From: a virus
Taxonomy: Duplodnaviria; Heunggongvirae; Uroviricota; Caudoviricetes
Strand: one strand, 5' to 3'
IMG/VR virus record: IMGVR_UViG_3300035703_000003
DNA: 64,000 nucleotides
In this document: in pieces, positions 26,512-51,920 of the stretch
Layout of the letters: every line of letters starts with the position of its first letter
Numbering within the stretch: position 1 is the stretch's first letter
Position numbers and translations under genes: made by a program
The notes under the pieces: model-generated
Seen by the model: only the letters and a program-made list of their open reading frames with translations
Database searches by the model: none
What the model was told of the DNA's origin: nothing

Positions 26512-26540
26512 TATATAATGCAAGATGTCTTGGATGTCAA
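26512..26540 (-). promoter_or_regulatory. Sigma70-type early promoter with spacer palindrome
   Basis: TTGACA-17-TATATA; aagatgtctt at 26522-26531. Confidence 0.75.
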
Positions 26541-26548
26541 TACAAAAT

Positions 26549-27154
26549 TTAACCAAAACACGGATTTGAATAGAAATTTGCTAGAGAAATTAAGTTTTTC
26601 ATTGTAGGTTTTGTAATCCTGAATGCCCACACTTCTGTTAATTCCCGTCTTTCGAAGTATGCTCCGGTAGAATCGCCCATCTTTTCATATGATTTTGGTT
26701 TTGAAGCAATTTTGCTTAGTATATCTTGTCTTGCAATTTCATAATAATCTTCGAGTTTTGATTGAATAATCGAGTTTGATAAATCTACTGTATCGATGGA
26801 TGAAATTTCAACATACCTTTTTACATCATAACCGACAAGAATCATAAATTTGCATTTATCAGATATAGGTATATCTTTGTATGTTGTAGTTAAAATGTCT
26901 TTTGTAGTAGAGGTTCCGATTGTCCACGAAGAGTTTTTGGAGGAAATTTCATACGATTTAGTTTCCCAAGGCATAGTGAAGATATTCATGTCTGCCCCTT
27001 TCCCGTTTTGATAATTCAAACAGCCTTCATATTGATCATGAATCCAATTTCCGATAGCACCAGAATGTCCGCCGAGATATTCCTTCATTACATTAGGTGG
27101 TATAGGATCACCTACACGTGGACCATAATTAAGATATATTGTATTCGATCTCAT
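26549..27154 (-). CDS. Putative PD-(D/E)XK restriction-endonuclease-like protein
   Basis: GAIGNWIHD..GADM....WETKS pattern. Confidence 0.4.
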   Translation of the reverse strand: MRSNTIYLNYGPRVGDPIPPNVMKEYLGGHSGAIGNWIHDQYEGCLNYQNGKGADMNIFTMPWETKSYEISSKNSSWTIGTSTTKDILTTTYKDIPISDKCKFMILVGYDVKRYVEISSIDTVDLSNSIIQSKLEDYYEIARQDILSKIASKPKSYEKMGDSTGAYFERRELTEVWAFRITKPTMKNLISLANFYSNPCFG

Positions 27155-27175
27155 TCTACTCGTCCTGTTATACTA

Positions 27176-28583
27176 TTAAGAAGAAACTTTAAAGCAGCCA
27201 ACTACTTTATACAGATTACCATATTGTGCTTGCACTAGACCACGTGCTGTATAATCATCACGTGCATCAATATGAACATCTTCTTGTAGTGGACCCATGT
27301 TATTGACAGTAGTTTTTACTTGGTTATTTCGTAGGATAGTAACACGATATGTAGGCATAATTTTCTCCTTTATAGCCCTAACACTTTTCCGACACTTTCA
27401 TCTAACCCTTTATACGGGTTTTTATGCAGGTGATCAGCGACCTGTTCAAAGTAAAATGCAGCATCGTCTTCGCCTGCATCACGTAGCTTGTTAGCAGAAG
27501 ATTGCATGAACTCGATAAGTTGTTTAATGCTTACACGACCATCGGTAGGTTTATTCATCATTGATATCCTTTTTAGAAAAATGTTGAGCCCATTCGAGCA
27601 AATCATCAAACCATGGATGATTGTAGTTATTGAGAATATCTACAATTTCTTCCATTGTCAAGTTTTTAAATTGCTTTGGTTTTTTCGTTTCGATCACTGT
27701 TGTCACTTCTGCCCCCTAAGTTTACTTACAATTTTACGCTCACGAACTTCTTCTTCGTGCTGTTTTACAAATTCTTCTTCGCCTGCATATGTGCTGCACT
27801 TGTCGAGTTGCTCTTGCACAAACCACAATAGTTCATACAAGTCCTGTTTACAACCCCATGTTACAAATCCATCCATTCTGGGATCTGTAGCGGCCCAGGT
27901 TATTCTGGATATTTCTTGTTTGATATCCGACTTAGACCAATCGATTATCATTATTCTTTCCAGCTAGATAGCCGTTCGATGACCTTTTTTTCTTGTTGAA
28001 TTTCTACGTGTGCTTTGTCTTTGGCTGACGACCACATCAATGAACCGAACAGATATGTGATAAACCCTAGTGCTACAATAGCAAACTCACTACCTTCCAT
28101 AAAGCCGAAATATTTAACAACATGACCGAGAACGTAAACTATCACCGCAGTTGTAGTTGCAAACGCAAGACCTTTGCCTACGTTAATAGAAAAATGCTTG
28201 ATGGTTAGTTTTTGTACTTCTGTTAAGTTACGCATGTGCAGGTTCCTCCATTTCAGAATAAAGTTTATCCATTTCAGATTCATACTCGTTGATCTGATTT
28301 AGTAATGCCCGACGGCGAGTTCGGATCAGTTTGCGTTGAACGTTAGGATCAAGTTCTCCTAGTAGGGCTTCTAGGAAATCAACTTCTTCATACATTTCGA
28401 TCATTCGAGTGACTCCGTGCAATCACAGTCGCCGACCCACTCCATCCAAATTGTATCGTAAGCAACGTCTTTTTGAGCTAGCCAATGACCTACCCATTCC
28501 GGGTTCATTCGAGCAGTAACAGCTACTACAAGAACATACATCACTAACAAAAAGATTGCAAAGTCACGCATATTGCGGATCAT
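27176..28583 (-). other. Cluster of small hypothetical CDSs (27176-27358, 27370-~27560, 27703-27951, 27951-~28235, 28228-~28400, 28401-28583)
   Basis: Tightly packed minus-strand ORFs with overlapping starts and stops; two are membrane proteins. Confidence 0.6.
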
Positions 28584-28901
28584 GATATACCTCAGAACAA
28601 AAGATAAATGATTGCGAAGGCAGTAAGACAGTTTAGTATACCGCTAAGGGGTTCGATAACCAAACTGTTAAGCAGTTTCTTTTTCATGTTAGCCTGCCAT
28701 TTCCAAGGTTTCTTCACGGATAGTCAATGTTTTGCCGGTCATTTCTTCCAGCACCATCCACAGTTCAGCAGCATTACCAAAGTCAGGCTCTTCGCCATAC
28801 ACTTTATCAGTCTCGTCGACAATCACAAAGTTGGTCATCAGTGTTCTCCGTCGTTTCCTACAGTATTTTTATAGCATAGCACAACTATACTGTCAACACT
28901 T

Positions 28902-29270
28902 TTATTTCACTACAATCCGAATGTTTCCGCTGTTAACGTTATATTCTGCAGCAAAGCCAAGTTCTTCCATGGCGTTCAAAACATCGACCGATTTCACATA
29001 ACGATTGGGCATGAACTTGAACACTGTAACATCAGTGAACACACCCTTGCTTTTCTGATCCCGGGCAGTTTCAAAAATCTTTTCGTAAAAGCTAGTGTTA
29101 TTCACACGAAGCATTGACCGCAGTGTGGACACTGCAGTTTCAACTTTGGAGCGGTGCGACTGGCTTTCAAAAAAGTGACTGTTTGCATTATACGCTGCAC
29201 GGGCCCGAAGCTCTGCATCGACTGCAAAAAACTTGGCTTGCTTTTCGTCTTTGGCTGATTTCTGAAACAT
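28902..29270 (-). CDS. Hypothetical early protein
   Basis: GGAG SD, directly downstream of promoter 29298-29326. Confidence 0.7.
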   Translation of the reverse strand: MFQKSAKDEKQAKFFAVDAELRARAAYNANSHFFESQSHRSKVETAVSTLRSMLRVNNTSFYEKIFETARDQKSKGVFTDVTVFKFMPNRYVKSVDVLNAMEELGFAAEYNVNSGNIRIVVK

Positions 29271-29297
29271 AGTGTTTTCTCCGCTGTCTACATATAC

Positions 29298-29326
29298 AAT
29301 ATAGTGTAAGAGCTCTTGGATGTCAA
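29298..29326 (-). promoter_or_regulatory. Sigma70-type early promoter with perfect AAGAGCTCTT palindrome
   Basis: TTGACA-17-TATATT; 29288-29329 is identical to 51322-51363. Confidence 0.85.
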
Positions 29327-29334
29327 CCTATTTT

Positions 29335-29520
29335 TTACTCTTCGCCTTCTGCAATTTCTGCTAGCATTTCTTTAACATCGTAGCCATACGCTTGAATTGC
29401 AGCAACAATCTCTTTTGCACTTGCGTATGCGTCCCAGCTTTGCACGTCGTCTTCATCACTGTCGTCGTATGCGTTAGCAGCAATGTCGGTAATGTTAGCA
29501 AACAGTTCTTCCAGTGTCAT
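29335..29520 (-). CDS. Small acidic hypothetical protein
   Basis: Own promoter and SD. Confidence 0.65.
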   Translation of the reverse strand: MTLEELFANITDIAANAYDDSDEDDVQSWDAYASAKEIVAAIQAYGYDVKEMLAEIAEGEE

Positions 29521-29547
29521 TGTATCTTTCCTTTTTCTTACATATAC

Positions 29548-29576
29548 AATATAGTGTAAGAGTTCTTGGATGTCAA
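29548..29576 (-). promoter_or_regulatory. Sigma70-type early promoter with spacer palindrome
   Basis: TTGACA-17-TATATT; aagagttctt at 29558-29567. Confidence 0.85.
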
Positions 29577-29587
29577 TAGTCGATTAT

Positions 29588-29617
29588 AAAAAAAGTTGCC
29601 CCGAAGGGCAACTTTTT
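29588..29617. terminator. Bidirectional Rho-independent terminator
   Basis: aaaaaagttgccc-cgaa-gggcaacttttt. Confidence 0.85.
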
Positions 29618-30221
29618 AATCATTGCTAGCTACAACAATTTCCTCGTTGTAAAAAACGTGATTATCAATTTGGACTACTCGGTTGAATTTTTTCCTCCAA
29701 CCTGGTTTTGAATAGTCTGCGTGGAAGTAAGTTGATCCTTCTGTAGGATCTAACTCTGTGTGGTAGTTTTTGAGAACGTAAGTAGCAATATCCTTTGCCT
29801 TTTCCCACGCTTCCTTATCTTTAGGTTTATCGCTCTTGCCATCATTGGTCCAGCTGAATTGACCTGATTGCCAAACAACATTACAAATAGTGTTTGGAAA
29901 TTCGATGCTGAAAACTCTATTCATTGTGACCCAAGCAACGGCCTCTTGACCGATGGCACTTTCGCCTCTAGACTCAAAATAAATGTTTTGTGCTAGACAA
30001 TAGAACTCGTTTTCAGACGTTGTATCATATAGTGTAAGTATTGGTTTTTCTACTTCGATGTATTTCGGAACATACACTATCTGAATTGGTTGATACTGCG
30101 AGGCAATATCTTCTGGGGGTGCTGCAACAGCAGGACTCACCGAACCACTTAGGTATAAGCTAGTTGCTAACCCCAGTGCGATTCCAGTTGCAAATCCTCC
30201 CATTAATATAGACATCTTCAT
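29616..30221 (-). CDS. Cell wall hydrolase, SleB/Hydrolase_2 family, with N-terminal anchor
   Basis: CLAQNIYFESRGE..GQEAVAWVTMNRV..FPNTIC.VV.Q..QFSW..DPTEGSTYFHA..IDNHVFY. Confidence 0.9.
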   Translation of the reverse strand: MKMSILMGGFATGIALGLATSLYLSGSVSPAVAAPPEDIASQYQPIQIVYVPKYIEVEKPILTLYDTTSENEFYCLAQNIYFESRGESAIGQEAVAWVTMNRVFSIEFPNTICNVVWQSGQFSWTNDGKSDKPKDKEAWEKAKDIATYVLKNYHTELDPTEGSTYFHADYSKPGWRKKFNRVVQIDNHVFYNEEIVVASND

Positions 30222-30285
30222 ACACTTCTCCTTTTCAGTAAGTTACTTATAGAATGTTGTGTGGTAGATGTCTACTAATAAAATA

Positions 30286-30311
30286 ATCGTAAGCGGGTTT
30301 CCGCTTACGAT
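30286..30311 (-). terminator. Stem-loop, probable terminator
   Basis: atcgtaagcgg-gttt-ccgcttacgat followed by a T-rich tract on the minus strand. Confidence 0.7.
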
Positions 30312-30319
30312 ACAGGGGA

Positions 30320-30604
30320 TCAAACAGCTTCTAGCATACCTGCAGGGACCTTATACGTAGTGGTCCCAAACATGCCGTGGTTAGCAACCTTAACGAGCAC
30401 CGTTTTTTGGTTTACTTTGCTAACAGTGCCTTTGATAACAGCACCGCCCCGAGCAGTAAACTTAACAGTGTCGCCGATAACAAAGTTGCGAATGTTGCGG
30501 CGGCTCAGATAGGTCATCTGTAGCTTGACAGCTTCGATAACTTGGTTGAGTTCGGTTTGCGTTTTAATGTGGCGGATCTGATCTACGAGAGTATTCACGC
30601 TCAT
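30320..30604 (-). CDS. SH3/KOW-like small protein
   Basis: FVIGDTVKF..GTVSKVNQKTVLV. Confidence 0.6.
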   Translation of the reverse strand: MSVNTLVDQIRHIKTQTELNQVIEAVKLQMTYLSRRNIRNFVIGDTVKFTARGGAVIKGTVSKVNQKTVLVKVANHGMFGTTTYKVPAGMLEAV

Positions 30605-30633
30605 TGTACTTTCCTTTCAGTCGTTATGTTTGA

Positions 30634-31014
30634 TTAGCGCAGGTAGTGGGGACCGGTCCAGGCAATGCTGTAACCGTTAAACACGTTACCACGGGCGGCG
30701 GTCGACAATGAGGGGCTTGCCCAGCTAACAGCTTTAAGGATGTCACCTTGTTTAAACTTGGGACCGTTGTCTTTAACAATGAAGCCCCACACGCTGCCGT
30801 TCTGGACAATCTTGATATACTTTCTACCTTCCTCGACACGTAGGGTTTTTTCGAACCGCTCGATCATGTCTCGGTTGGTTTCGCTATATTCGGGACCATC
30901 TTCACGCTTGGCAGCAAGACCGCCGAACGAACGGTTCATCCAATCTCGGTAGTCAGTTTTGATAGCTTCGACAAGAACTTCGATAGCAACAGTCATATCA
31001 GTTAGTTTCATCAC
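30634..31014 (-). CDS. Conserved T4-like phage hypothetical protein
   Basis: GRKYIKIV..SVWGFIV..GDILKA..ARGNVF. Confidence 0.7.
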   Translation of the reverse strand: MMKLTDMTVAIEVLVEAIKTDYRDWMNRSFGGLAAKREDGPEYSETNRDMIERFEKTLRVEEGRKYIKIVQNGSVWGFIVKDNGPKFKQGDILKAVSWASPSLSTAARGNVFNGYSIAWTGPHYLR

Positions 31015-31040
31015 ATCTCTCCTCTATCGTCTACATTATT

Positions 31041-31069
31041 AATATAAGATGTCTTGGTCAGAAGATCAA
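31041..31069 (-). promoter_or_regulatory. Sigma70-type promoter with palindrome next to the -10
   Basis: TTGATC-17-TATATT; aagatgtctt at 31046-31055. Confidence 0.7.
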
Positions 31070-31105
31070 GAGTTATTTTGTCTTTTTTTGAAAAAAGATT
31101 TAAGT

Positions 31106-31958
31106 TTACTCTTCGATATTTTCTGATCGAAATTCTCCGATCTCGATACGTTCGATCGAGTCTGGCGGATACCAAACGTTGTCGAGTTTGATACCGTTTT
31201 TAGCACGTTTTCTTAGCCACTCGTTAACATCGGAAGAGTCGTAACGATAGCTACCAAGTGAACCCATTCTAAAGTCGTCAAACTCGATGACCCGTTCAAA
31301 CGGAGTTTCATTGCCTTTGATGTAAATTTTAAGTTCTTGGCTATGTCGCTGCAGAGGATTAGTCTCGTAACGCTTTTGTTCGTTGGTCCTTGGATCCCAG
31401 AGCCACTTTAGTGTATCAACTAGTCCCATTTTATATTTCCTTAGTTGTCAACTTTTTCAACAGTACCATCACATCGAACAAGCTCTATATACACAGCACC
31501 GCCGACGCTTTTACCAATATAACGTCCTGCCCGTGGGGAAAACCCCAACCGTGCATAGTTTATTGCATGTGTTTTCGCATCTTTTTTGCTGCCAAATGTA
31601 CGGTTCAAGTCTTCCTGTCCTGGCTTACATACACGATAAAATGAAATCTTTGCTTTTGACATTGTTAACCCTTCCCTCCTGATTACGACCAATCCATATC
31701 AATTTCTTCAGTGTAGCCACCGCTGTTAACAACTTGACCACCAACGATCACCGAGTTGGGACCAGTGTAGCGCCAATACATTGAACTGCGAGTGGTAATT
31801 TTTTCTGCCCACCCGTAATCACGCAAGTCTCCAATGCAAACGGAATACGCAGATCCACTTGCATCAGTCAGTTCGACCGTAATACCGGCAGCAATCTTTG
31901 CAACTGCTTCGGTAACCATTTCACGCTTTTCTTCACGAGTGGGCAGCTTTATCATCAT
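31106..31958 (-). other. Three small hypothetical CDSs (31106-31429, 31441-~31662, 31683-31958)
   Basis: Minus-strand ORFs with SD sequences, downstream of promoter 31984-32012. Confidence 0.6.
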
Positions 31959-31983
31959 ATCTCTCTTCTTTGCTTACATTACG

Positions 31984-32012
31984 AATATAAAGTATGATGT
32001 CTTACTTGTCAA
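31984..32012 (-). promoter_or_regulatory. Sigma70-type early promoter with degenerate palindrome
   Basis: TTGACA-17-TATATT; atgatgtctt at 31994-32003. Confidence 0.8.
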
Positions 32013-32473
32013 GTCTTTTTCTTGCCTAAATAGTCTTTTTCGGTATAAGTTTTTGCCATATGACACAACACACATAATGTATTAATATTATCTCCTGTGT
32101 CGGCGCCGCCTTGACTTTTTAGTTTAATATGATCTCCGTGCATTACGCCACGCATGGCACGAATTTTGTCATATTCGTTTTCTACATGTCCAAACCGTAA
32201 TTCATCTTCACGTGGATCGTAACCGCAATTTTTACAAATCCAACCACGATAAAATGTATAAGGGCGTTCTGGTTTACCCATCCCGCCGTATTCTACACAT
32301 TCTAGTTGATGTTTACGGCATAGCAAATTGCTACCGGGGCCGTCGTATGTGCTTAATGGTTCGCAACAATCTTCTAGCATACAAGTGGCCCCTCGGGCCA
32401 CTTGCTCTTTAATTACAGCATTACTTTTGCTTTGATCTTTTTTTAAGTCACGGATCGTAGCCATTAGTTCCAC
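32009..32473 (-). CDS. HNH endonuclease with Zn-binding Cys pairs
   Basis: CKNC..HGDHIKLKSQGGADTGDNINTLCVLCH. Confidence 0.8.
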   Translation of the reverse strand: MELMATIRDLKKDQSKSNAVIKEQVARGATCMLEDCCEPLSTYDGPGSNLLCRKHQLECVEYGGMGKPERPYTFYRGWICKNCGYDPREDELRFGHVENEYDKIRAMRGVMHGDHIKLKSQGGADTGDNINTLCVLCHMAKTYTEKDYLGKKKT

Positions 32474-33621
32474 AAGTCTGTTTCTGCTACAGTAAAACCG
32501 TTGTTAGGAATATACTTAGGTGTTGCTAGTTTAGTGCTCTTTTTAAGTTGAGCAATCAAAAACGGAATACCTGTCCGCATTTCTGTAGTAAATCCACGAA
32601 CAATAACCTCGCCGTGTTCGTTAACATCGTCACTGTTTTCGTTTTTACTACGATACCAATTATTATACGCATTTTGCACTTTATTCCAAAACATGCCGTT
32701 TGGACTAAAGTCTGCTTCAAAGAACTCTTTGGTAAACGTAACAAACTCAGACATATACTTGTCGTTGACTTTGATATTTTGTTCATAACACAAGTTAAAG
32801 TATTCAAACAACTGACGAGCCTCTTTTGCATCTACTGGGCGGTTTGCATTTAGCCGTGCCCAATAATCGCAAAACATACGAGTTACTTCCGGATTTTTAC
32901 GGGTCTTTGCACTCTTACTCATTAGTGTATCTGCAAGTAGGGTAAATGCGCCAGATTCATCCTCGTCGCCAAACTTACTGTTTGTAGCAAACAAATCTGC
33001 TGCAGCAAGATAATCGTTTTTTTGTGCAGCGTCCAACCATTCAGGATCATCAGCACCATCGACCTTAACACCGAACACCATTTGTTTATAAGTGTCAATG
33101 AAGTCGAGCGGTTCTTTTGCATCACCGTTGAGCAAAATAAAGTTACGACGAATTTCTAGTTTTTGACTTGTTGAGTATACAACAATTGGCACAATACACT
33201 TTGCTAGTCGTTCGCCATATACAAGTGCAGCAATGATATATAAGGCTATCGCTGTATGCTGCCCGTCCCATGCTACGTATTTGCCGTCGCTATTTTGATA
33301 AACTTGCAACGACATAACCATAGTTTCTCGGAAATTGTTAATGATATTGATAATATGTCGAATGTTCGGCTGTCGCTGCATACTTGTATCAACTAAGATA
33401 CAGTCCAACGAAGATTCCAAACCTTTGCAGAGGTTAATGTCTGCAAACTTTCCCCAGTTTGGATTTCGACGTTTAAATTCGTCCACTGCTTGATCGAGTT
33501 GGACTTTAAAATGAGGCGCTTTATCTAGTGCTTCATTTAGACGCTGTTGAAGCGTTACGAAATTGGATTTGCTTGACTCGTATTCTTTGTTCACACGAGT
33601 AGCGTATGATAGTTCTGTCAT
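32464..33621 (-). CDS. ParB/Srx-fold (DGQH-type) protein
   Basis: VDTSMQR..YVAWDGQHT..FILLN. Confidence 0.65.
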   Translation of the reverse strand: MTELSYATRVNKEYESSKSNFVTLQQRLNEALDKAPHFKVQLDQAVDEFKRRNPNWGKFADINLCKGLESSLDCILVDTSMQRQPNIRHIINIINNFRETMVMSLQVYQNSDGKYVAWDGQHTAIALYIIAALVYGERLAKCIVPIVVYSTSQKLEIRRNFILLNGDAKEPLDFIDTYKQMVFGVKVDGADDPEWLDAAQKNDYLAAADLFATNSKFGDEDESGAFTLLADTLMSKSAKTRKNPEVTRMFCDYWARLNANRPVDAKEARQLFEYFNLCYEQNIKVNDKYMSEFVTFTKEFFEADFSPNGMFWNKVQNAYNNWYRSKNENSDDVNEHGEVIVRGFTTEMRTGIPFLIAQLKKSTKLATPKYIPNNGFTVAETDLWN

Positions 33622-33685
33622 TTTAGTTTCTCCATTTTAACGGTCATCCTGACCTGTGGTTGCGAGCTTCTCTTGCTCAATTACT

Positions 33686-33714
33686 AATATAGCTTAACTT
33701 TATAGTTATGTCAA
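33686..33714 (-). promoter_or_regulatory. Sigma70-type promoter of the ParB-HNH operon
   Basis: TTGACA-17-TATATT. Confidence 0.75.
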
Positions 33715-33721
33715 CTACTTT

Positions 33722-34078: not shown

Positions 34079-34098
34079 CGTTTTAATCCGGTCATGTC

Positions 34099-34969: not shown

Positions 34970-35222
34970 GACTCCATGACGGGTTGCTGCCCGTCATTTT
35001 CCATCTCCGCCTCCTCCTCCTCTTCAATTTGACGAACTTTTGCTTCCAGTTGAGCAATATAGTGATCTAGTGCTTCCTGCATTGCAGATTCAGGAAGCTC
35101 GACAATATCGCCCAGCTTGTCGATGATTGCGATCAGTGTCAGGTAATGCATGGTGTCCCTCTTTGCGTTGTGTGTTAGTGGTAGCACATATGTTACAGCA
35201 TGTCAAGCCAGTTTATTGTATT

Positions 35223-35582
35223 TTACGACCCCATACAAAGAGTAAGCGAGCCGTCGTCTTCCATATGGAAGTCTTCGACAAAGGTGTGCCAGTCACCTTG
35301 TGCTTTAGCTTGTTGATAGCAAGATTCTGCGGCACGCCAAAGGGCACGGACACCGCCGCTTTCTGCTACTGCCGACACAGTGATCCATTTTGCGGTCCCG
35401 TTCATCAACTCCTCTATCGTAGCATCTTGAGAGATAAAGGAGTAGTTCACATTGCGGGGCTTATCAGTGAAGATTTTTGTATCTACGGATTGTGCTTCCC
35501 AAATGGACCAAACCGTTTCAACCCCAAGCTCAGCTTGGCAATCGGACCAGTATTTAACTTCGATCATTGCATCGGTTATCAT
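35223..35582 (-). CDS. Hypothetical early protein
   Basis: GGAG SD; downstream of promoter 35610-35638. Confidence 0.65.
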   Translation of the reverse strand: MITDAMIEVKYWSDCQAELGVETVWSIWEAQSVDTKIFTDKPRNVNYSFISQDATIEELMNGTAKWITVSAVAESGGVRALWRAAESCYQQAKAQGDWHTFVEDFHMEDDGSLTLCMGS

Positions 35583-36427: not shown

Positions 36428-36688
36428 CTAGACTGGTTGGACACTTTTGACATTTGCCACACGGAATGAACGCCATTCATTTTTATCTGTGCAATATACA
36501 ACCATCACTTCTTCGTTAACAGCACGAACCTTTTTCTGTGATAGTGGGTCTTCTTTAACTGCAGGCGGAAGTAAATCTTCACGTAGTGTGCATGGCATAG
36601 TGCGCTCTGTTCCGTCTACTTTAGTAAACGTAACGTTATATACACCTGATTGTAGTTGTTCTGCTAGTTCTTGACGTGTTAGTAACAT
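36428..36688 (-). CDS. WYL_2 (Sm/SH3-like) domain protein
   Basis: VTFTKVDGTERTMPCTL..DKNEWRSFRVANV. Confidence 0.8.
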   Translation of the reverse strand: MLLTRQELAEQLQSGVYNVTFTKVDGTERTMPCTLREDLLPPAVKEDPLSQKKVRAVNEEVMVVYCTDKNEWRSFRVANVKSVQPV

Positions 36689-42572: not shown

Positions 42573-42815
42573 TTAATTTGTGGATGAAATGATCTTTAGC
42601 AACATCGAGTAAGTTTGATCTACTTCGTATAATGCTTCTAAGTATGGTTTAGCAGCTTCTTCTGCAGCAATACGTTTAGCTTGATTCATTTCTGCAGTCA
42701 ATGCTTGTTTTTGTTTAAAAAGCTCTTGCAAGTTTTCATTGGTTGCAACAGCTTTAAGCTCGCTTTTGCCTAAGTTAGATGCGTGTAGTCTGGCGTTTTT
42801 GATTACGTCACTCAC
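42573..42815 (-). CDS. Coiled-coil hypothetical protein
   Basis: ORF in operon. Confidence 0.6.
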   Translation of the reverse strand: MSDVIKNARLHASNLGKSELKAVATNENLQELFKQKQALTAEMNQAKRIAAEEAAKPYLEALYEVDQTYSMLLKIISSTN

Positions 42816-44099: not shown

Positions 44100-44338
44100 T
44101 GTTCATTATACCTTCTTGCAATAGAAAATGCTTCTTCAAGATCAAATCGAGTAGCAGCAATAAACTCTTCGGTTCTACTGCTAGGCATAGGTTCATAATG
44201 ACGTTGTAGTTCTCTGTCAAGAACTGTGCCGCCAAATACGCTTACACACCAAAGATCCTTGCCACGCTTCTCAATTGCAATGTCTTCAGCAATTTGAAAT
44301 CGTGTGGCCATTTTAAGCATTTGTTCTGCGGTAAACAT
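44096..44338 (-). CDS. Hypothetical protein
   Basis: YEPMPSSRTEEFIAATRFDLEEA. Confidence 0.65.
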   Translation of the reverse strand: MFTAEQMLKMATRFQIAEDIAIEKRGKDLWCVSVFGGTVLDRELQRHYEPMPSSRTEEFIAATRFDLEEAFSIARRYNEQ

Positions 44339-45390
44339 TAGTCGCCTCCTTTAAGAAGGAATTGGTTAGAGATAGTTTTAAAGCTGAAGCTAGGATCTTC
44401 GTTGCACTTCCAAACAAGACCTTCACGAATAGGATGATTAATGCTAGGACCTTCAGCGAGAGCAAGACCTTCTTCGACAGAAGCTGGTGCTTTCCAATCT
44501 TCTCCAAGAATAGGAACACCTTCTACAGCAGGATCTAGACCGAATTCAAACATTGATTTAAGGCAACCAATCCTGGTTTTCGGATCAAGATACTTGTGCT
44601 CTTTAATGTTAAAGATGTCGAACACAAAGAACTTGTGATCTTTGAACCCTTCACGGTTACCCTGAATGCCGGGACCCATAAGTTCGCCTTGCAGAGCAAA
44701 GCCTTCGGGCACAAGTTGACCCATCTTCAGTGCCATTGCAACAAAGGTGTTGTCCTTGTTCTCGTCGTTGATCTTGAGTTCCATGTTGCGGCTGCACACA
44801 CGAAGCTCGCCTTCCCAACGGAAAATTGTCATTGACGAACCGTCGAGTTTCAAAGTAACTTCGTAAGTTACATCACCCTTCTTCTCAATATCACGGAAGC
44901 AGTTTTGAATCCGCTCTTGATCGGTCTTGGGGATCAGTGAAGATGGGAAAGTGCCTTTAGCTTGCCCTTGCAGTTGAGCAGGAATAGGTGCTTCCCACTT
45001 TTGGATGCCGAGGATATCAGTAACATCAAAACTGCGATCACTGTCGTTAGGATCAACAATACGAGTTTTATGAAACTCCTTTACAACATCCGGGAAGTCC
45101 CAGTAGTTGAGAAGTAGACCTTGCGAAACTTGCCCACGAAGTTTAACAGTGCGGAGGCGTTCGCCTTTTACACCGTTGTATTCACGAGGTTCGTGACCTT
45201 TGCTAAGGAACGGTGCAATCTCATGCGGAACCCAGCTGTCAATTTCAAGATAGATAGCAGAGTCGCCGATTGCAAATTCGCCCTTTTTAATGACAACTTT
45301 CCAACCGTCAACAACAGCTACTTCAATAGCGTCGGCGCCTTCAATAGGCAGAATGTCAGCAATGCGTCGAATCGAAGCTAGTTTACGCAT
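44338..45390 (-). CDS. RNA ligase, DRB0094/Rnl2-like family
   Basis: MRKLASIRRI OB domain; KTDQER, KLDGSS, GELMGPGIQGN, REGLVWK, SFKTISN. Confidence 0.9.
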   Translation of the reverse strand: MRKLASIRRIADILPIEGADAIEVAVVDGWKVVIKKGEFAIGDSAIYLEIDSWVPHEIAPFLSKGHEPREYNGVKGERLRTVKLRGQVSQGLLLNYWDFPDVVKEFHKTRIVDPNDSDRSFDVTDILGIQKWEAPIPAQLQGQAKGTFPSSLIPKTDQERIQNCFRDIEKKGDVTYEVTLKLDGSSMTIFRWEGELRVCSRNMELKINDENKDNTFVAMALKMGQLVPEGFALQGELMGPGIQGNREGFKDHKFFVFDIFNIKEHKYLDPKTRIGCLKSMFEFGLDPAVEGVPILGEDWKAPASVEEGLALAEGPSINHPIREGLVWKCNEDPSFSFKTISNQFLLKGGD

Positions 45391-45453
45391 TAGTTTACCT
45401 CTTTGTTTTGTTACAAAGTTAAAGTAGCATAAAACCACGATGCTGTCAACTAG

Positions 45454-45819
45454 TCAAACATCGTCGTTTTGAGTTTTAAGGAAGTTTTCCATATACCTTC
45501 GAATGTTTTCAGCACCAACAGGATTCATGCTGTGAACATGATATCCAAAGCCCACAGGCATTCGAAGACGGTTATCCATCACATAGTCACAGAACCATTT
45601 GGCAAAAGTATAACCAGTCTTTTCGCCAGTGTCTTTGCCGTAGTGTTCGTCAGCAAGATCGTGGTCGAAACTGATGAAGGTAGGCAAGCCATATTGCTTC
45701 ACTGCCCACACAGCATCATCCATACTGCGACAGATTCTAAGATTTTCATAAGGGCCATAGAAGAATTTTACATCTTCCGGAAAACGGATATCGTCTAGGA
45801 ACAGTGTCCAGTATTTCAT
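45454..45819 (-). CDS. Cyclic-phosphate-processing receiver-domain protein
   Basis: LFLDDIR, ISFDHDL, TGYTFAKW, HSMNPVG. Confidence 0.8.
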   Translation of the reverse strand: MKYWTLFLDDIRFPEDVKFFYGPYENLRICRSMDDAVWAVKQYGLPTFISFDHDLADEHYGKDTGEKTGYTFAKWFCDYVMDNRLRMPVGFGYHVHSMNPVGAENIRRYMENFLKTQNDDV

Positions 45820-45970
45820 TTCAATGTCCAAAATTCTTTATCAATTTCAATTCGGTCATCAAGACCTTTTTGATAACCAGCATACCACGCAAGCCACAAT
45901 GCTTCTCCTACATCATTACGTAGCAGACCAGATAAAATATCTTTGTGTTGTTCGAACCATTCATCAAAGG

Positions 45971-46948
45971 TCATGCTTTATTTGCCCATTTAGCATACTT
46001 GTCTTCAGGATCCTGGTCGATGCCATTTTCTTCCCTCCACTGCTGATCTTCTTCGTATTCAGCAAGTGCTTCTTCTTTTGTATAGAAACGTCCTTCGTTC
46101 CAGTTCCAGTGATTTACATTGTAAATTTGAAAGTTGAAGAACCAGTTAAAGACCGTAAGTTCTAAGCGTGGCCCAGCATGATCCTTACCAGTCCAACTGG
46201 TATCTACATAAATTTCAAAAATGTTACGCAGTGGCATACGTGAAATTTGTAGCTCTGTGGCCCAATTCTCGCTTAATCGCTTGTCCCACACAACGTAGTC
46301 TTTTTGCTCAGTGCGGTCGTTAGGACGAGGATGGTTTATACGAAAAATAAATTCAATCATTTTTTTTCCAAAGTTTTACAAAGAGTCCAGTATCTTCTAC
46401 GTAGCAGTAACCAGGCACAACATACTCACGACCGTGTTTATCTACATAAAGATTGTCTTGGTCTTTGAGCACCGTTACGATCATATCGTGAAACTGTTTT
46501 TGTGCCTCAGTCTCATCAATGTCGTTTAGTTCACTTTGCTCCATATAGTAAAGCCAAGTTTCACTAAAATTGTCAATGCAAGGTCTGGGTGTAATAGACT
46601 GTTGATACACTGTTCCACTGTAGAATGCTGTAGCAAAGCAGGCAATAGCAATCAACCAACCTGCAACATAACCGTATGTAATTTGAGGATACATCACAAC
46701 CATCCAGTCCTATTCTTTTCTTCTTCAGTAAACTGTCCGCCCATACGATCTGGGTTCAGTTGCCAGCCCATATCAGACACAGTGTCGCTCAACTTTTTGA
46801 GTTCTCTGGCCTGACTGTCAATCCGGCCAGCAGCACGACTTAGCAAAATGTAGATCTTTTCTTTATCAAAGACAAAGTTATCATCTTCGATATCAGCAAG
46901 TACATCGGCAATATCAGCAACAATATCAGTCATTTTAGCACTCCGCAA
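45971..46948 (-). other. Three hypothetical CDSs (45971-46360, 46353-46703, 46694-46948)
   Basis: Coupled minus-strand ORFs. Confidence 0.6.
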
Positions 46949-47130
46949 TCGCAGTAAAGTGTTTCATCACCGATCGTTTCACTGGTTCACTGTGACGATA
47001 CGGAGTAGCAACCAACTGTGGTGCTTCGGTATACATACGCCGCTTAACCAGTTCCAGCGTATACAGTTTGCCGTTTGTGTGTCTGAAGATAGTCATGTCT
47101 AACCCCCTGCGTCTTACTTCCTACACTAAC

Positions 47131-47159
47131 AATATAAGCAATACATCTTGGTTTGTCAA
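47131..47159 (-). promoter_or_regulatory. Sigma70-type early promoter with degenerate palindrome
   Basis: TTGACA-17-TATATT; aatacatctt at 47140-47149. Confidence 0.75.
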
Positions 47160-47160
47160 T

Positions 47161-47190
47161 AAAAAAGGCGACCTAAACCGCCTTTTCTTT
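47161..47190. terminator. Rho-independent terminator
   Basis: aaaaaaggcg-acctaaac-cgccttttcttt. Confidence 0.7.
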
Positions 47191-47192
47191 TA

Positions 47193-48350
47193 TTACATGC
47201 CCATCCATCGAGCGCATTCTTCCCAACGAGTGTTAGTAGAAGTATGCTTCTCGATATGGTCAATAATCATCTTACGACCTTCACGATCACCAAAGCGACC
47301 AAACACGTAGTTAGGCGCAAACGAGTCGTTGTTCTTAATCGTAGGCATCCATTCCTGAGCATAACGCTTACGGTCAAGGCCCGAAGCAACTACAGTGTTG
47401 TAGTAACGTTCGTAGCTTTCTACAAGCGAGTGCAGCCGTTCTGCAAACCGACGTTCGAATTCACGAACACGATCTGCTTCATGCTGCGGCAGCATAGGAA
47501 TAGCATCGTCAACTTCTTCGTTAAGAATTAGTTCAACAATGTGACGATCATACCGAATCTTGTCCATAGTCTTGTGAATACGAACATACCAGTCGTTCTT
47601 GATCTTCAACATATGCCCGTCCGAAAAACGGATAATATCCCCTTCACGGTTTTCTTGCATACGAGCCCGAGCAATGTAGTCAGCGAGATTGCCCTCAATC
47701 GAGCCATACACAGGAACACGAGTAAGCCCAGCAGGAGTATCGTTCTGGTCTACAAGATACCCGCCAGTCTCGTTAACACGAATAGCAAGCAACACAAGGT
47801 CAGGCTCGCTATAGCTGATAACGATCTGGTTAGTAGGAGCGATGAATTCAAAGATCGGAGTGACGCCAATCTTCACACACCGTTCCAACCAAATCGAAAT
47901 CTCGGCCCAGTCCTTGCGAGAAGCAAGATAAGTTTCAGCAGCCATAGCTACTTCAGTAACACCCATCTTGGTAGCAAGACGCAGACGACCATCGACCAGC
48001 AACGGACGAATCATCGACCCGTCCATCTTTTCCATAATAACGTGAGACTCGCTCAGATCAATCTTGTGCATCTGAGTTTCTTCACGTTCGTTTACGTTGA
48101 AGAACTTGTGGAACGGACGGCTCATAAGGTTGCCCTCACGGTCAAAGATCAAGCCACGGCACTCACGGCGGATCGCACCACCAAGGTCATCGGGCCCAGT
48201 CATATCAAAGGTATCTTCCATAGCAACAGCGTAGTTGATTACAGTGTAACCTTCACGCTCTGCTACGATAAATTCGTCACGCCCTTCGATATGAGGAAGA
48301 ACATCCTCAATCGTGCGAATCACTGGAAACTGGTATTGCATGTTAGACAC
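47193..48350 (-). CDS. T4 Rnl1-family RNA ligase
   Basis: RECRGLIFD, RPFHKFFNVNE, EKMDGS, TPIFE, EGDIIRF, LKIKNDWY. Confidence 0.9.
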   Translation of the reverse strand: MSNMQYQFPVIRTIEDVLPHIEGRDEFIVAEREGYTVINYAVAMEDTFDMTGPDDLGGAIRRECRGLIFDREGNLMSRPFHKFFNVNEREETQMHKIDLSESHVIMEKMDGSMIRPLLVDGRLRLATKMGVTEVAMAAETYLASRKDWAEISIWLERCVKIGVTPIFEFIAPTNQIVISYSEPDLVLLAIRVNETGGYLVDQNDTPAGLTRVPVYGSIEGNLADYIARARMQENREGDIIRFSDGHMLKIKNDWYVRIHKTMDKIRYDRHIVELILNEEVDDAIPMLPQHEADRVREFERRFAERLHSLVESYERYYNTVVASGLDRKRYAQEWMPTIKNNDSFAPNYVFGRFGDREGRKMIIDHIEKHTSTNTRWEECARWMGM

Positions 48351-48400
48351 CCTTTTTCGTTACTATTAACTTATATAATAACCGTTCATGGTTGTCAAGC

Positions 48401-48424
48401 AAAAAGGGCCTTAAAGGCCCTTTT
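48401..48424. terminator. Rho-independent terminator
   Basis: aaaaagggcc-ttaaa-ggccctttt. Confidence 0.75.
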
Positions 48425-48929
48425 ATTTCTCTAAGTTGCCATACATATCAAAGATGCGGATAACATCAAACCCTTCATTGAGAGTAGGGATAGTATAGTT
48501 CTCCATCATTGAACTCATTACATTATCTGGGATAGTTTTACCCGGACGATTCTTAAGGCGATCGAGCCACTCGTCGATTTCTTCTTCACTGATTGGCGGA
48601 CGAATGCACTCACACACAACTGTATAGCCAGCGTTCTTCATCCGACGAACAATCTTCTCACGCTTCTTCGTGCCAGTGTTAGTTTGATCCCAAACAATGT
48701 CCATGCCTTCACGAATCGCAGTGTCAAGCATACGATTCATTTCGCTAGTTGCTTTGTCAATATACTTAGCAAATGCAAAGTCGTAGGTCCACCCTTGGCC
48801 CTTGGCCCATTCTTCGATGAGATTATCAGTGCTATAAACAAAAGCATCAGGATTCATAGTTGTGAGATCACGAACACGAGTGCTTTTGCCGGTCCCCGGA
48901 AGCCCAGCCATAACAATGCAAATAGACAT
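48423..48929 (-). CDS. AAA_33 / polynucleotide kinase domain protein
   Basis: GLPGTGKST, STD, DQTN, R..RPGKTIP, PT..EGFD. Confidence 0.85.
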   Translation of the reverse strand: MSICIVMAGLPGTGKSTRVRDLTTMNPDAFVYSTDNLIEEWAKGQGWTYDFAFAKYIDKATSEMNRMLDTAIREGMDIVWDQTNTGTKKREKIVRRMKNAGYTVVCECIRPPISEEEIDEWLDRLKNRPGKTIPDNVMSSMMENYTIPTLNEGFDVIRIFDMYGNLEK

Positions 48930-48947
48930 TTTATTATTCTTTCTAAG

Positions 48948-49661
48948 TTAGAAGTAAACGTGAAGGTTTTCAGCAACAGGGCTAAATCCTTCAAACAGTT
49001 CGGAACCATCAAGCACCAGAGCTTCACGCTCACGACCGTGAATTACAATCGGCGATTCGAGATCAACATACACGTTAAGACCGTTGCCGTAGCTGCTACG
49101 AACGTTACTGATGGTGCCGATGAACGGCGCACCAAAATAATTTCCAGTAACAGTCTTGCCTACACCGTCCTGATAGAGCGCATTCATGAAGCTGTTCATT
49201 TTGTGTCTCTGTTGCCTACATTATTAATGTAATACATCTTGAAGAAGAAGTCAACCACTATTCTTCCCAGCGGATCACAAAGAACTCTCGGTCTTGGTCA
49301 CGCCCACCGTCGATGTCATAGACCTTCTCCGATCGTACGTCAATCACGGCATCGTCAGGATAGTCATCCAACATCCTACGGAGGTCCTTCACAGTCACAC
49401 CGTCTAGGACGATATACTTCTCGTACACCGTGTATTCACCGCTTTCTTTGCGTTCAGTCATAGTATGGTCTCCATCACATCACAGTAGACACCGTAGTGG
49501 ATGCTGTATTCTTCACTCTGTCTCCGCCAATACTCACAGTATTTGGAGTGGGCTTCCCTAGTGTCATCAGCCATCACGATGCGGATGTCTTCGACAGTGT
49601 AGGTATCTCCCATGTATGGAGTTACGCTAACACTGCCTTTTACAATATACGGAATCATCAA
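48948..49661 (-). other. Three small hypothetical CDSs (48948-49199, 49258-49461, 49458-49661)
   Basis: Minus-strand ORFs; promoter 49226-49254 precedes the first. Confidence 0.6.
49226..49254 (-). promoter_or_regulatory. Sigma70-type promoter with palindrome next to the -10
   Basis: TTGACT-17-TACATT; aatacatctt at 49231-49240. Confidence 0.65.
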
Positions 49662-50104
49662 AAGTCCTCCTCACCTTGGTAGACGTTAAACACAAAGATA
49701 CCAGCATCACGCCACATACGCACAACTCGTGGACGATCGTCGAACACCATGTCTGGCTTCTTACCGTAGTCAGCGATGATTTCGTCAAGGATTTCACGCT
49801 TAACAATATCGTCGCCACGGAAGTCTTCTGCTTTACGCATGTAGAGTTTTTCGTATTCGTAAAACCCATTGCTCTGAAGCCATTTTTCAGTAGCAGAGCG
49901 ACTGCGCTCATTTCGGCCACTGGCAAGAATAATAGTGTTGAACGCAGACAGCGAACGAAATGCTTCAGCAACATACGGATTTACTTTATCATTCGGAATG
50001 CCAGCGTCAAAGGCTTTCCAATTTTTCGGCTTGCTACGAACAAACCCAAGGCGGTGTTCGATATTAGCTAGTGTGCCGTCGATGTCGAAGACAATCAGAG
50101 CCAT
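49658..50104 (-). CDS. PNKP-type HAD 3'-phosphatase
   Basis: FDIDGTLA, SGR, LYMR..D.RGD..VK, FDDRPRVV.MWR. Confidence 0.88.
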   Translation of the reverse strand: MALIVFDIDGTLANIEHRLGFVRSKPKNWKAFDAGIPNDKVNPYVAEAFRSLSAFNTIILASGRNERSRSATEKWLQSNGFYEYEKLYMRKAEDFRGDDIVKREILDEIIADYGKKPDMVFDDRPRVVRMWRDAGIFVFNVYQGEEDF

Positions 50105-50139
50105 AGTTTTTACTTTCTATGTTAGTGTGTTTATAACTT

Positions 50140-50168
50140 ACATTAATATAAGACGTCTTACTTGTCAA
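50140..50168 (-). promoter_or_regulatory. Sigma70-type promoter with perfect AAGACGTCTT palindrome
   Basis: TTGACA-17-TAATGT; palindrome at 50150-50159. Confidence 0.7.
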
Positions 50169-50446
50169 CGACTAAATGTCAGTTTATACACAATTATGTC
50201 TTCTTTATTTTTGAACCAAAAGACTTCGCCTGTCCAAGTGTAGTTCTCGCCAAATATTTCTTTACATTGACGATGGCATTCTTTCCAATTCAAATGAAAA
50301 TATTGTGTGCATATAACAGGATGCCAGCCTTTTGCTAACAGATCTTTGCACCATACACTTTCTAATTGATTACTTTCAAGCAAAACCCACTCTTTAGCGA
50401 GCTCCTCTTCTGCAATGATAATTGCTCGTCTGTCCGGAGTTGACAT
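50165..50446 (-). CDS. Hypothetical protein of the F-x4-D-x3-F-K-L family
   Basis: Ends FWFKNKEDIIVYKLTF. Confidence 0.6.
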   Translation of the reverse strand: MSTPDRRAIIIAEEELAKEWVLLESNQLESVWCKDLLAKGWHPVICTQYFHLNWKECHRQCKEIFGENYTWTGEVFWFKNKEDIIVYKLTFSR

Positions 50447-50757
50447 TAAGTGTGTTCCACTACTTTGATACCCGTTGCTTCAATTGCACTTTGACAAACA
50501 GGGCAAGGTTTAGCATTACTAGGCTTGCCGACTTTATCAAACCGCATCACAACAATCTTGTGCGCTTTGTCGAGCCGTTTGCAACGAGCAATAGCATGAA
50601 TTTCAGCATGAAGGAAAATTTTATCAGGCAAACCAACCTTTTCAGCATGTTTGCATTGCAACGGGTGAGTTTTGCAGTAGGAGTTTTTACCCACCGACAA
50701 AACTTTGCCCCGTTTATCGTAAATGATAGCAGTGATATCAAACCGTGCTTTGGACAT
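50446..50757 (-). CDS. Zn-dependent cytidine/deoxycytidylate deaminase-fold protein
   Basis: HAEIHAI and KPCPVC motifs. Confidence 0.85.
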   Translation of the reverse strand: MSKARFDITAIIYDKRGKVLSVGKNSYCKTHPLQCKHAEKVGLPDKIFLHAEIHAIARCKRLDKAHKIVVMRFDKVGKPSNAKPCPVCQSAIEATGIKVVEHT

Positions 50758-51041
50758 TAGCCGACCTGAGCGTTAATGAAATCCACCAGGTCTTCTGCAA
50801 ACACACCTTCGACCTTCTTGTCGTATTTGATGTCAACACCACGAATACGGAAAAAGTCGATATTGTAAAGGTCTTGCCCTTCGTCGTATTTGACGTAAAC
50901 ATGACCTTTCCAGCGAGTCATACCGCTAGTTTTAAACTTGAGCCCTGCACCCATGTCTACAAAGTCTTTAGCGCCCCATGCAGCAAAAGCCCACTTATCG
51001 AGCGTTTTGATTTGCTGCATGATGATTTTTGCTACCGACAT
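50757..51041 (-). CDS. Conserved phage hypothetical protein
   Basis: Downstream of promoter 51070-51098; SD. Confidence 0.7.
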   Translation of the reverse strand: MSVAKIIMQQIKTLDKWAFAAWGAKDFVDMGAGLKFKTSGMTRWKGHVYVKYDEGQDLYNIDFFRIRGVDIKYDKKVEGVFAEDLVDFINAQVG

Positions 51042-51069
51042 CTGTTCATCCTTCGTTGCCTACATGTTA

Positions 51070-51098
51070 TATATAATGTAAGACGTCTTGAATGTCAA
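51070..51098 (-). promoter_or_regulatory. Sigma70-type promoter with perfect AAGACGTCTT palindrome
   Basis: TTGACA-17-TATATA; palindrome at 51080-51089. Confidence 0.8.
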
Positions 51099-51101
51099 CC
51101 A

Positions 51102-51302
51102 TTATTTGAACAGAACTTTAACCAAATTCCCCGCTGGGTCGAACATGGTGCAGACTCTGTTGCTCACACTCTTAACAGTGGTGCGAGTTTGCCACCACGC
51201 TTCAGCTTCTGCCTCGGTGTCCACAAACACAGCGTTCCACTCCAATGGCCCGTTGGGGTTTTCTGCATTAGATTTAGAGAATTGTGTTCTTACTTGCCAC
51301 AC
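51102..51302 (-). CDS. Small hypothetical early protein
   Basis: GGAG SD, GTG start, own promoter. Confidence 0.6.
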   Translation of the reverse strand: MWQVRTQFSKSNAENPNGPLEWNAVFVDTEAEAEAWWQTRTTVKSVSNRVCTMFDPAGNLVKVLFK

Positions 51303-51331
51303 CTTGATTCTCCGTGTTGCCCTACATATAC

Positions 51332-51360
51332 AATATAGTGTAAGAGCTCTTGGATGTCAA
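51332..51360 (-). promoter_or_regulatory. Sigma70-type promoter with perfect AAGAGCTCTT palindrome
   Basis: TTGACA-17-TATATT; 42 bp identical to 29288-29329. Confidence 0.85.
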
Positions 51361-51920
51361 CCTCGAAAGTATTTGCTTTCGTAAAAAATCTGTTCTAAAA
51401 ATAACTTAGCACCTTTGCTAACATTATTTTCCCACTCTTTACCTTGGTCTTCATCGCTGTCTACGTCACTAATGTATTTGTAACTATAGAATGGAACATT
51501 AAACATTTGTGCAGTTGCAGCTAGTGCATATGCTTCCATATCTACAATATCGTATCCTTGTTGCGGACGAGCAAAACTATCACCTGTTCCGCAAATTACA
51601 CCCGGATCTTTATTTGAAGTATAGATAAGAGGTTTCTGATCAACTGCAGAAACATACAAAGGTAGACCGATGGGTGTCAGATCCATGTCACGTTCTAACA
51701 CTGCGCTAACGTGTAGTAGCTGCCCTTTGTAATAATCGTCTGATGCTCCTGCAGTTCCGTAATTGATAACAAATTCTGTATGAGGATTGGTTGTTAGGTA
51801 TTTAGATAATTGCATTGCTGCATTTACTTTCCCTACACCTGTATATAGAATGTTAAAACCTTTAGGTGCATACTCACGCTGAAATTCTTCAGGTAATGCA
51901 ACTACAATTAATTTGCTCAT
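51357..51920 (-). CDS. MTA/SAH nucleosidase-like protein (PNP/UDP family)
   Basis: TGVGKVNAA, INYGTAG, TGDSF, VDMEAYA, KYISD. Confidence 0.85.
   Translation of the reverse strand: MSKLIVVALPEEFQREYAPKGFNILYTGVGKVNAAMQLSKYLTTNPHTEFVINYGTAGASDDYYKGQLLHVSAVLERDMDLTPIGLPLYVSAVDQKPLIYTSNKDPGVICGTGDSFARPQQGYDIVDMEAYALAATAQMFNVPFYSYKYISDVDSDEDQGKEWENNVSKGAKLFLEQIFYESKYFRG

Follow-up and report, generated by a model that had tools for sequence, protein, structure and literature searches.

Classical repressor operators can lie between or over the -35 and -10 hexamers of a promoter, as do LexA boxes, the Arc/Mnt sites at P22 Pant, and the lacO and tetO sites of engineered spacer promoters, and the P1 C1 and phiC31 c repressors act at many dispersed operators. 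A compact dyad of 8-10 base pairs (bp) suits one ribbon-helix-helix dimer, as with MetJ and Arc. Arbiol et al. in 2010 are said to have described promoter-early/stem-loop (PeSL) cassettes in T4-type phages. For the PeSL consensus promoters the spacer is given as an unspecified N17 and no spacer motif is described (PMC4122927); the giant phage PA5oct depends on host RNA polymerase, with TTGAC / TATAATA promoters (PMC7318152); and MetJ is an S-adenosylmethionine-dependent ribbon-helix-helix repressor whose operators are two or more tandem boxes of consensus AGACGTCT (PMC4239095). Here we consider a 64,000-nucleotide (nt) stretch of DNA from an uncultured large phage (IMG/VR record IMGVR_UViG_3300035703_000003, hereafter the window), with its genes nearly all on the minus strand, in which a set of promoters carries the palindrome AAGA-NN-TCTT (pattern AAGANNTCTT) within the spacer. 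The palindrome is not described in the T4-type promoter papers PMC1524935 and PMC4122927 or in the PA5oct paper PMC7318152, and a literal search of papers for the 10-mers returned only primers and unrelated matches. Our analysis bears out the promoter set, first noticed in a preliminary description made from the sequence, and shows that it reaches across a whole phage clade. The best-supported reading, to which we give about an even chance, is that the palindrome would be an operator.

All eleven 10-mers of the preliminary description are found at the + strand coordinates claimed for them. Because genes and promoters alike run on the minus strand, the strings as first listed are reverse complements of the sites, a difference immaterial for a palindrome. 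Seven copies are exact (26522, 29308, 29558, 31046, 50150, 51080, and 51342), and four have a single arm mismatch (31994, 35620, 47140, and 49231). Read on the minus strand, each of the eleven sits inside a -35/-10 spacer, as had been proposed, and in all 11 the spacer is 17 nt, which places the hexamers with those of a housekeeping (sigma-70/SigA-type) factor. The -35 box is an exact TTGACA in 9 of the 11, with TTGATC and TTGACT in two weaker promoters; the -10 boxes are TATATT, TATATA, TACATT, or TAATGT. If offset is taken as the number of nucleotides between the -35 box and the start of the palindrome in the minus-strand reading, eight sites are at 3 nt, one at 4 nt (47140), and two at 8 nt (31046 and 49231, which run into the -10 box), in agreement with the earlier count of nine at 3-4 nt and two abutting the -10. 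The usual layout is TTGACA, 3 nt, AAGA-NN-TCTT, 4 nt, TATATT, 5-6 nt, and TGTA(A/G), and each site is followed on the minus strand, 25-45 nt downstream, by a ribosome-binding site of the GGAG type and a start codon; this spacing would put the transcription start near the G of TGTAR. The genes driven are mostly small ORFans, along with a PNKP-type phosphatase, an AAA_33 kinase, a deaminase-like gene, and an operon ending in an RNA ligase, and, judging by the promoter type and these small ORFans, the promoters are probably early. Promoters without the palindrome are also present, at 25864, 33714, 56661, and 63492 (25836, 33686, 56633, and 63464 in the earlier numbering) and additionally at 28896, 30274, and 48398. 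The palindrome does mark a subclass of the housekeeping-type promoters. TGTAR does not: it is present downstream of the -10 in the palindromic promoters, as had been noted, but also in the non-palindromic 25864, 28896, and 63492.

Chance does not account for the palindrome. There are 15 copies of AAGANNTCTT in the window, compared with 1.7 +/- 1.3 in dinucleotide shuffles, none of 100 of which reaches 15, and with 2.5 predicted by 4-mer frequencies; it ranks first among the 256 palindromes with the form 4-N2-4. A motif search beyond the window shows conservation across many related uncultured phages: the 20-base pattern TTGACA-N3-AAGA-N2-TCTT-N4-TATATT has 95 sites in 86 IMG/VR loci, and a control of equal composition and symmetry, AGAA-NN-TTCT, placed in the same full promoter pattern, finds one IMG/VR locus. 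In 596 Gb of bacterial genomes the full pattern has 14 matches. One is L104 (JBIKJV010000352.1, 2871 nt), binned with a Phycisphaerales metagenome-assembled genome (MAG) from Lake Mendota, which is 95-99% identical to window positions 51000-51400 and almost certainly is phage DNA; the match suggests a freshwater origin for the window phage. The remaining 13, from varied MAGs and without the flanking features of the family, look like chance.

How the site is built was read from a logo of 83 non-redundant promoters of offset 3, at those positions which the search pattern did not fix. Variation is seen at the three positions ahead of AAGA (A/T, G/C, and T/C in turn), the flanks carry 0.2-1.0 bits, and the second center base is free at 0.29 bits; AC follows TCTT in about 88% of the promoters (1.35-1.5 bits), and the next two bases are again free. 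The earlier statement that the arms are conserved and the center varies holds for the second center base; the first is C in 66/83. The clade consensus is (G/C)(T/C)AAGA-C-N-TCTTAC, centered near -21.5 in the commonest register, and in about 40% of copies the dyad is extended to GTAAGAC-GTCTTAC. Of 232 unique promoter variants, 106 have a perfect dyad and most others show single-arm decay; in imperfect copies one arm is degenerate and compensatory changes are never seen, a pattern that fits protein half-sites and not a nucleic-acid hairpin. The half-sites are conserved above their neighbors, as judged from the logo and from orthologs that keep the arms where other spacers decay. Nor is the module tied to one exact register. 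Over all loci, the offset is 2 nt in 10 cases, 3 nt in 102, 4 nt in 7, 5 nt in 7, and 8 nt in 8; many further promoters in the fetched loci of relatives are palindromic at offsets 4, 5, and 8 besides 3, and the preferred register differs between whole lineages, the 172-kb contig G001 usually having offset 2.

Within the window, where all the promoters that follow are on the minus strand, P26540 (26512..26540) has TTGACA at 26535-26540, AAGACATCTT at 26522-26531, 3 nt after the -35, and TATATA at 26512-26517, and drives 26351-26485, 26064-26375, and 25861-26070. P29326 (29298..29326) reads TTGACA-tcc-AAGAGCTCTT-acac-TATATT and drives a 122-aa ORFan (28902-29270); P51360 (51332..51360) reads identically. 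Behind a terminator hairpin, P29576 (29548..29576; TTGACA-tcc-AAGAACTCTT-acac-TATATT) drives 29335-29520. P31069 (31041..31069) has TTGATC and, at offset 8, AAGACATCTT at 31046-31055, the last T of which is the first T of the -10 TATATT; it drives a DUF7717-like gene (30634-31014) and a DUF7205, KOW-like gene (30320-30604). P32012 (31984..32012; TTGACA-agt-AAGACATCAT-actt-TATATT), with one right-arm mismatch, drives 31683-31958, 31441-31692, and 31106-31429, and P35638 (35610..35638; TTGACA-agc-AAGAACTCAT-acac-TATATT), also with one mismatch, drives a gene starting near 35582 (119 aa) and later genes. P47159 (47131..47159; TTGACA-aacc-AAGATGTATT-gct-TATATT; offset 4, one mismatch) comes after a terminator and heads the operon ending in the RNA ligase at 44338-45438. 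In P49254 (49226..49254) the -35 is TTGACT and AAGATGTATT (49231-49240), at offset 8, abuts the -10 TACATT; the genes driven are 48948-49199 and the AAA_33 kinase at 48423-48929. The dyad of P50168 (50140..50168; TTGACA-agt-AAGACGTCTT-atat-TAATGT) extends to GTAAGACGTCTTA, and the promoter drives the PNKP-type phosphatase (49658-50104). P51098 (51070..51098; TTGACA-ttc-AAGACGTCTT-acat-TATATA) drives 50757-51041, the deaminase-like gene (50446-50757), and 50165-50446. For comparison, two promoters without the palindrome are P25864 (25836..25864), ahead of a HAD-like gene (25242-25808), and P33714 (33686..33714), of a ParB-like/HNH operon.

The relatives were sampled, 80 in all, without bias through the clamp loader, and the identities given below compare each relative's clamp loader with the window protein. 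GenBank phages gave no megablast match to 8 kb of the window. The closest cultured relative is the Pseudomonas giant phage PA5oct (54% clamp-loader identity), with Atu_ph07 and Phosso at about 45%. Every TTGAC(A/T)-N17-TATA site in the fetched loci was listed, whatever its spacer content. Orthologs of P51360 in L104 and L022/L119 are identical from -35 to +5 save for the center, CG against GC in the window; the core of P51098 is unchanged in L104 and has a single altered base, in a spacer flank, in L022; and P47159, imperfect in the window, has in L083/L119 an ortholog with an exact AAGAGTTCTT in the same register. In orthologs of the non-palindromic P33714, P56661, and P63492, the -35 and -10 boxes are kept and the spacer diverges almost completely, the four orthologous spacers of P33714 being essentially unrelated. 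The element also comes and goes at one position: the HAD-gene promoter, without a palindrome in the window (P25864), has palindromic orthologs in L114 (offset 2), L113 (offset 3), and both L046 and L055 (offset 8), and in L118 it has a decayed copy, AAAGCATTTT.

Palindrome-positive clamp-loader loci are L112-L116, L119, L120, L124, and L125, with clamp loaders 64-98% identical, and 34 of their 67 promoter-like sites are palindromic. The palindrome is absent from L117 and L118 (74-75%), from L121 (65%), from the group at about 60%, from the complete 338-kb genome G008, and from G002 and G009-G011, as well as, in the related loci, from promoters lying about 40 nt or less from a tRNA gene (three independent cases). 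The element is thus a subclade trait that a sister lineage has apparently lost or let decay, and so limited a distribution fits a clade-specific partner.

What stands behind the relatives' palindromic promoters, and what fills the spacers of other promoters, deserves separate mention. A Pfam search of the commonest first genes returned ORFans, DUF7717, and an AT-hook AAA protein. The commonest of all is a conserved protein of 115-149 aa starting MAY(M/V)SQ..K..LAP.IKAVLKK (L075 1213-1632, L054 8536-8940, and about 20 other loci), with no Pfam match and no homolog seen in the window; the AT-hook protein (L009 3278-4144 and five homologs), in which 289 aa comprise an AT-hook at the N terminus and an AAA ATPase domain, lies behind a palindromic promoter in six loci. 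In distant relatives whose clamp loaders are about 60% identical (L128 7272, L172 9078, L187 8822, L188 5391, and L191 9951), sigma-70-type promoters have, immediately behind TTGACT, spacer sequence complementary in reverse to the ribosome-binding site that follows downstream, e.g., TTGACTcctgat...TATATTatatcaggag; the ribosome site could thereby be hidden in read-through RNA and not in promoter-started RNA. Unique GC-rich inverted repeats of hairpin type, e.g., TTGACAGGACCTACGGGTCCTGTTATAAT, fill the spacer at G011 4497-4525 and 115893-115921 and at G001 42695-42723, and are a different kind of dyad from AAGA-NN-TCTT.

The eight more exact copies of the palindrome in the window are intragenic, and most are unconserved in relatives or accounted for by conserved amino acids. 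A stand-alone copy, GTAAGACATCTTAG (13600..13613, minus strand), lies in an RyR-domain gene (13236-13790), where it encodes V-R-H-L-S. The 12-mer AAGACATCTTA(C/G) of this gene has zero synonymous change in four lineages, with neighboring codons varying, and the copy may be a binding site independent of any promoter. In G006, L003, and G001 the 12-mer, AAGACATCTTAC, is free of synonymous change, the adjacent codons varying at third positions.

What could such an element be for? We put at even strength the notion that the palindrome is an operator working by steric occlusion, at which a dimeric repressor, probably encoded by the phage, would control a subclass of early promoters. In outline, it would be a cis-regulatory operator in the spacer of strong housekeeping-sigma promoters; once occupied by a dimer of a sequence-specific protein, most likely a phage product, it would sterically exclude RNA polymerase; immediate-early transcription units would thus be shut down as a set, and promoters without the site, for example those directly before tRNA genes and several enzyme genes, would stay active. 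The promoter anatomy, the dyad with its conservation and mobility, and the limited clade distribution are observed; binding, its repressive direction, the early timing, and a phage source for the binder are inferred. The variability of the register within a 17-nt spacer suits occlusion and not a phase-dependent activator. To this extent the uncharacterized operator of the preliminary description has held up, the palindrome behaving as an independent, putative protein-binding module, but the binders proposed with it have found no support. Several observations weigh against the operator. The site is not fully symmetric: the first center C (66/83) has no matching G, and the AC of the right flank is better kept than the GT of the left. 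About 85% of copies are in one register, which would also fit a contact with RNA polymerase, and orthologs keep the entire core from -35 to +5, not the arms alone. Moreover, no cognate DNA-binding protein was found in these incomplete genomes. Among the roughly 120 open reading frames of the window, Pfam shows no helix-turn-helix (HTH) or ribbon-helix-helix family, a sigma region-4 protein (7087-7722) excepted, and RHH_1, HTH_3, and MetJ are absent from the palindrome-positive relatives searched for protein families, which amount to about 540 kb in five contigs from genomes only 25-48% complete.

The two proteins that had been put forward as binders are both disfavored. For the sigma-4 protein, the domain is missing from the homologous cargo gene of the palindrome-positive G001 and G006, in which only the C-terminal non-sigma module recurs, and the residues that read the -35 are replaced (equivalents of R584D, E585G, and R588G). 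The WYL_2 protein (36428-36688) has no match to a DNA-binding family and has homologs in the palindrome-negative L118 and L121. AsiA had no match in four positive contigs and the complete negative genome G008, in a search run without a positive control. A presence/absence comparison of six positive with two negative genome pieces yielded five clade-specific families, among them one overlapping-frame artefact, one MazG-like family, and one Nlig-Ia-like family. From the same comparison comes a weak candidate for binder or partner, the DUF7205 protein (30320..30604, minus strand), which is basic (94 aa, pI 10.3). It is present in 4 of the 6 positive pieces (the window, G001, G004, and G007) and in neither of the 2 negative ones (G002 and the complete G008), and its gene lies 65-981 nt downstream of a palindromic promoter in 7/7 lineages examined. 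The predicted structure (pLDDT 81) is a helical hairpin of two helices plus a KOW/NusG-CTD-like barrel, which makes the protein a transcription-linked candidate, the model giving no evidence of sequence-specific DNA binding; in the ESM Atlas only hypothetical viral proteins were returned. For the DUF7717-like early protein, AlphaFold gave low confidence and Foldseek no informative match.

The alternative that survives best, though we consider it rather unlikely, is that the palindrome is an element of promoter specificity or strength read by RNA polymerase itself, or by polymerase that is modified or escorted by a phage factor on hand at time zero (a virion-delivered protein), and that there is no separate repressor. 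The precedent would be the extended T4 early-promoter consensus, favored after Alt modification. T4-type early promoters do have conserved positions outside the hexamers (PMC1524935). The site is always inside near-consensus -35/-10 promoters, about 85% of the time in one register and with the whole core from -35 to +5 conserved between orthologs, and contact by polymerase would accommodate the asymmetry of the motif in its first center C and right-flank AC; yet the five registers, including one that overlaps the -10, are hard to square with fixed contacts, the dyad symmetry is left unexplained, and the stand-alone intragenic copy seems conserved with no promoter at all. As to a factor, the phage packages the sigma region-4 protein, but the homologous cargo gene of G001 and G006, both palindrome-positive, lacks the domain, and the residues that would read the -35 are replaced. 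The clade-specific, basic DUF7205 protein offers another, since its predicted fold is NusG-CTD/KOW-like and in NusG and Spt5 this fold contacts the transcription machinery.

A second possibility, which we hold to be unlikely, is that PeSL-type terminator-promoter cassettes have been spread and homogenized by duplication and recombination, the palindrome being a functionless passenger. In its favor, the cassettes resemble PeSLs. At least four window promoters (P29576, P30274, P47159, and P48398) come directly after a terminator hairpin; L119 has two identical palindromic promoter cassettes, at 17806 and 18062, 256 nt apart around a small ORF; and a promoter-bounded gene cassette is replaced between the window (48925-49468) and L119 (14858-16015). 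This duplication and replacement in L119 is PeSL-like modular shuffling, and T4-type phages are documented to contain PeSL cassettes whose promoters are near consensus (PMC4122927). Palindromic promoters also exist without an upstream terminator. Against a passenger, the arms hold in 83 non-redundant copies in which flanks and center diverge, non-palindromic spacers decay fast between the same pairs of genomes, and the 10-12-mer shifts as a unit to other registers; nor would a passenger stay a perfect dyad in 106/232 unique variants. Homogenization leaves unexplained why decay spares the arms alone. Duplication of promoters as the whole source of the similarity, the outcome that the preliminary description named as its refutation, is thus made unlikely.

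Very improbable, in our estimate, is a co-opted host regulator, MetJ or something similar, by which early phage transcription would be tied to host physiology. AAGAC(G/A)TCTT contains the met-box consensus at 7-8 of 8 positions (PMC4239095), no classical repressor encoded by the phage was found in the window or the related contigs, and a change of host could lie behind the clade limit. A MetJ operator, however, requires boxes in tandem, and adjacent 8-mers such as GACAACCA, TACTGTAT, and TACACTAT match the met-box at no more than 3 of 8 positions, and for this reason we do not file the element as a MetJ operator; in addition, the window has GC, AC, or CA at the center as often as it has CG, the near-identical relative is from the MAG bin of a freshwater lake whereas MetJ occurs in only five orders of gammaproteobacteria (PMC4239095), and a lytic phage would bear a cost if a host factor repressed its early genes. 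PF01340 (MetJ) had no match in the five related contigs, in a search that included an E. coli positive control. Other candidates fall more quickly. A phase-dependent activator is unlikely given that several registers are tolerated, and a MerR-type activator site needs a spacer of 19-20 bp, not the 17 nt of all 11 promoters. For a hairpin or cruciform the arms are too short, and imperfect copies lack compensatory changes. A T4 MotA-dependent middle promoter, in which a MotA box (TGCTT) at -30 stands in place of the -35, is excluded by the canonical TTGACA and the lack of a TGCTT box. The core of the P22 operator, AAG-N4-CTT, resembles the palindrome, but a Lambda/P22-type HTH operator would be expected to be a 17-18-bp site, its half-site centers spaced by about one helical turn, with a Cro/CI-type HTH protein to read it, against a conserved dyad of 10-14 bp with arm centers 6-8 bp apart, and no HTH_3 match was obtained in window genes or the five relatives. 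A restriction site is rejected on location.

Should the operator be real, a co-regulated set of early genes for host takeover has been defined from sequence alone in a large uncultured group of giant phages, and it points to a regulator that replaces early shut-off of the AsiA/MotA type. One tentative step further, which we think possible but would not bet on, these uncultured giant phages, which have late promoters like those of T4 and in which AsiA, MetJ, RHH_1, and HTH_3 went undetected, would shut off their immediate-early genes through a dispersed operator regulon read by a protein whose fold has not yet been linked to operator recognition, DUF7205 being one candidate; if true, T4-like phages would have a further, new way to pass from early to middle expression. 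If RNA polymerase is instead the reader, the palindrome would represent a specificity element of a new kind, placed in the spacer. For more utilitarian goals, the promoters are compact, strong, and potentially switchable, and thus of use in engineering, and the motif is a handy marker for the phage clade and for annotating its early transcription units.

Comparison with the known systems brings out resemblances and differences in each case. PA5oct is likewise a giant phage served by host RNA polymerase, but its promoters lack the palindrome (0 of 10 TTGACA-N17-TATA sites). With T4 and its AsiA-MotA switch (PMC1524935, PMC2988021), the phage shares host-sigma promoters with conserved positions beyond the hexamers and late promoters of the T4 type, TATAAATA; unlike T4, with its GTTTAC, the -35 here is the canonical TTGACA, and the spacer dyad is outside the T4-type consensus. 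PeSL cassettes (PMC4122927) offer near-consensus sigma-70 early promoters often right after a terminator hairpin and before small ORFans, in plastic regions with indels between close relatives, much as here. The PeSL stem-loop, however, is upstream of the promoter and is the terminator, whereas the dyad described here is inside the spacer, downstream of the -35, and with arms of 4-7 bp and a center of 0-2 bp cannot be a terminator. In the MetJ met-box, the core AGAC(G/A)TCT corresponds to one box at 7-8 of 8 positions and a compact dyad would fit one ribbon-helix-helix dimer; here, unlike there, the boxes are single, the center is variable, and the related phage DNA searched has no MetJ homolog. 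Beside classical repressor operators the palindrome is unusually compact (10-14 bp) and partly asymmetric, and it belongs not to an immunity circuit but to a presumably lytic giant phage with T4-like signals. In architecture there is a likeness to these operators: a short dyad in the core promoter, dispersed copies that would make up a regulon, and the tolerance of a variable register that steric occlusion leads one to expect.

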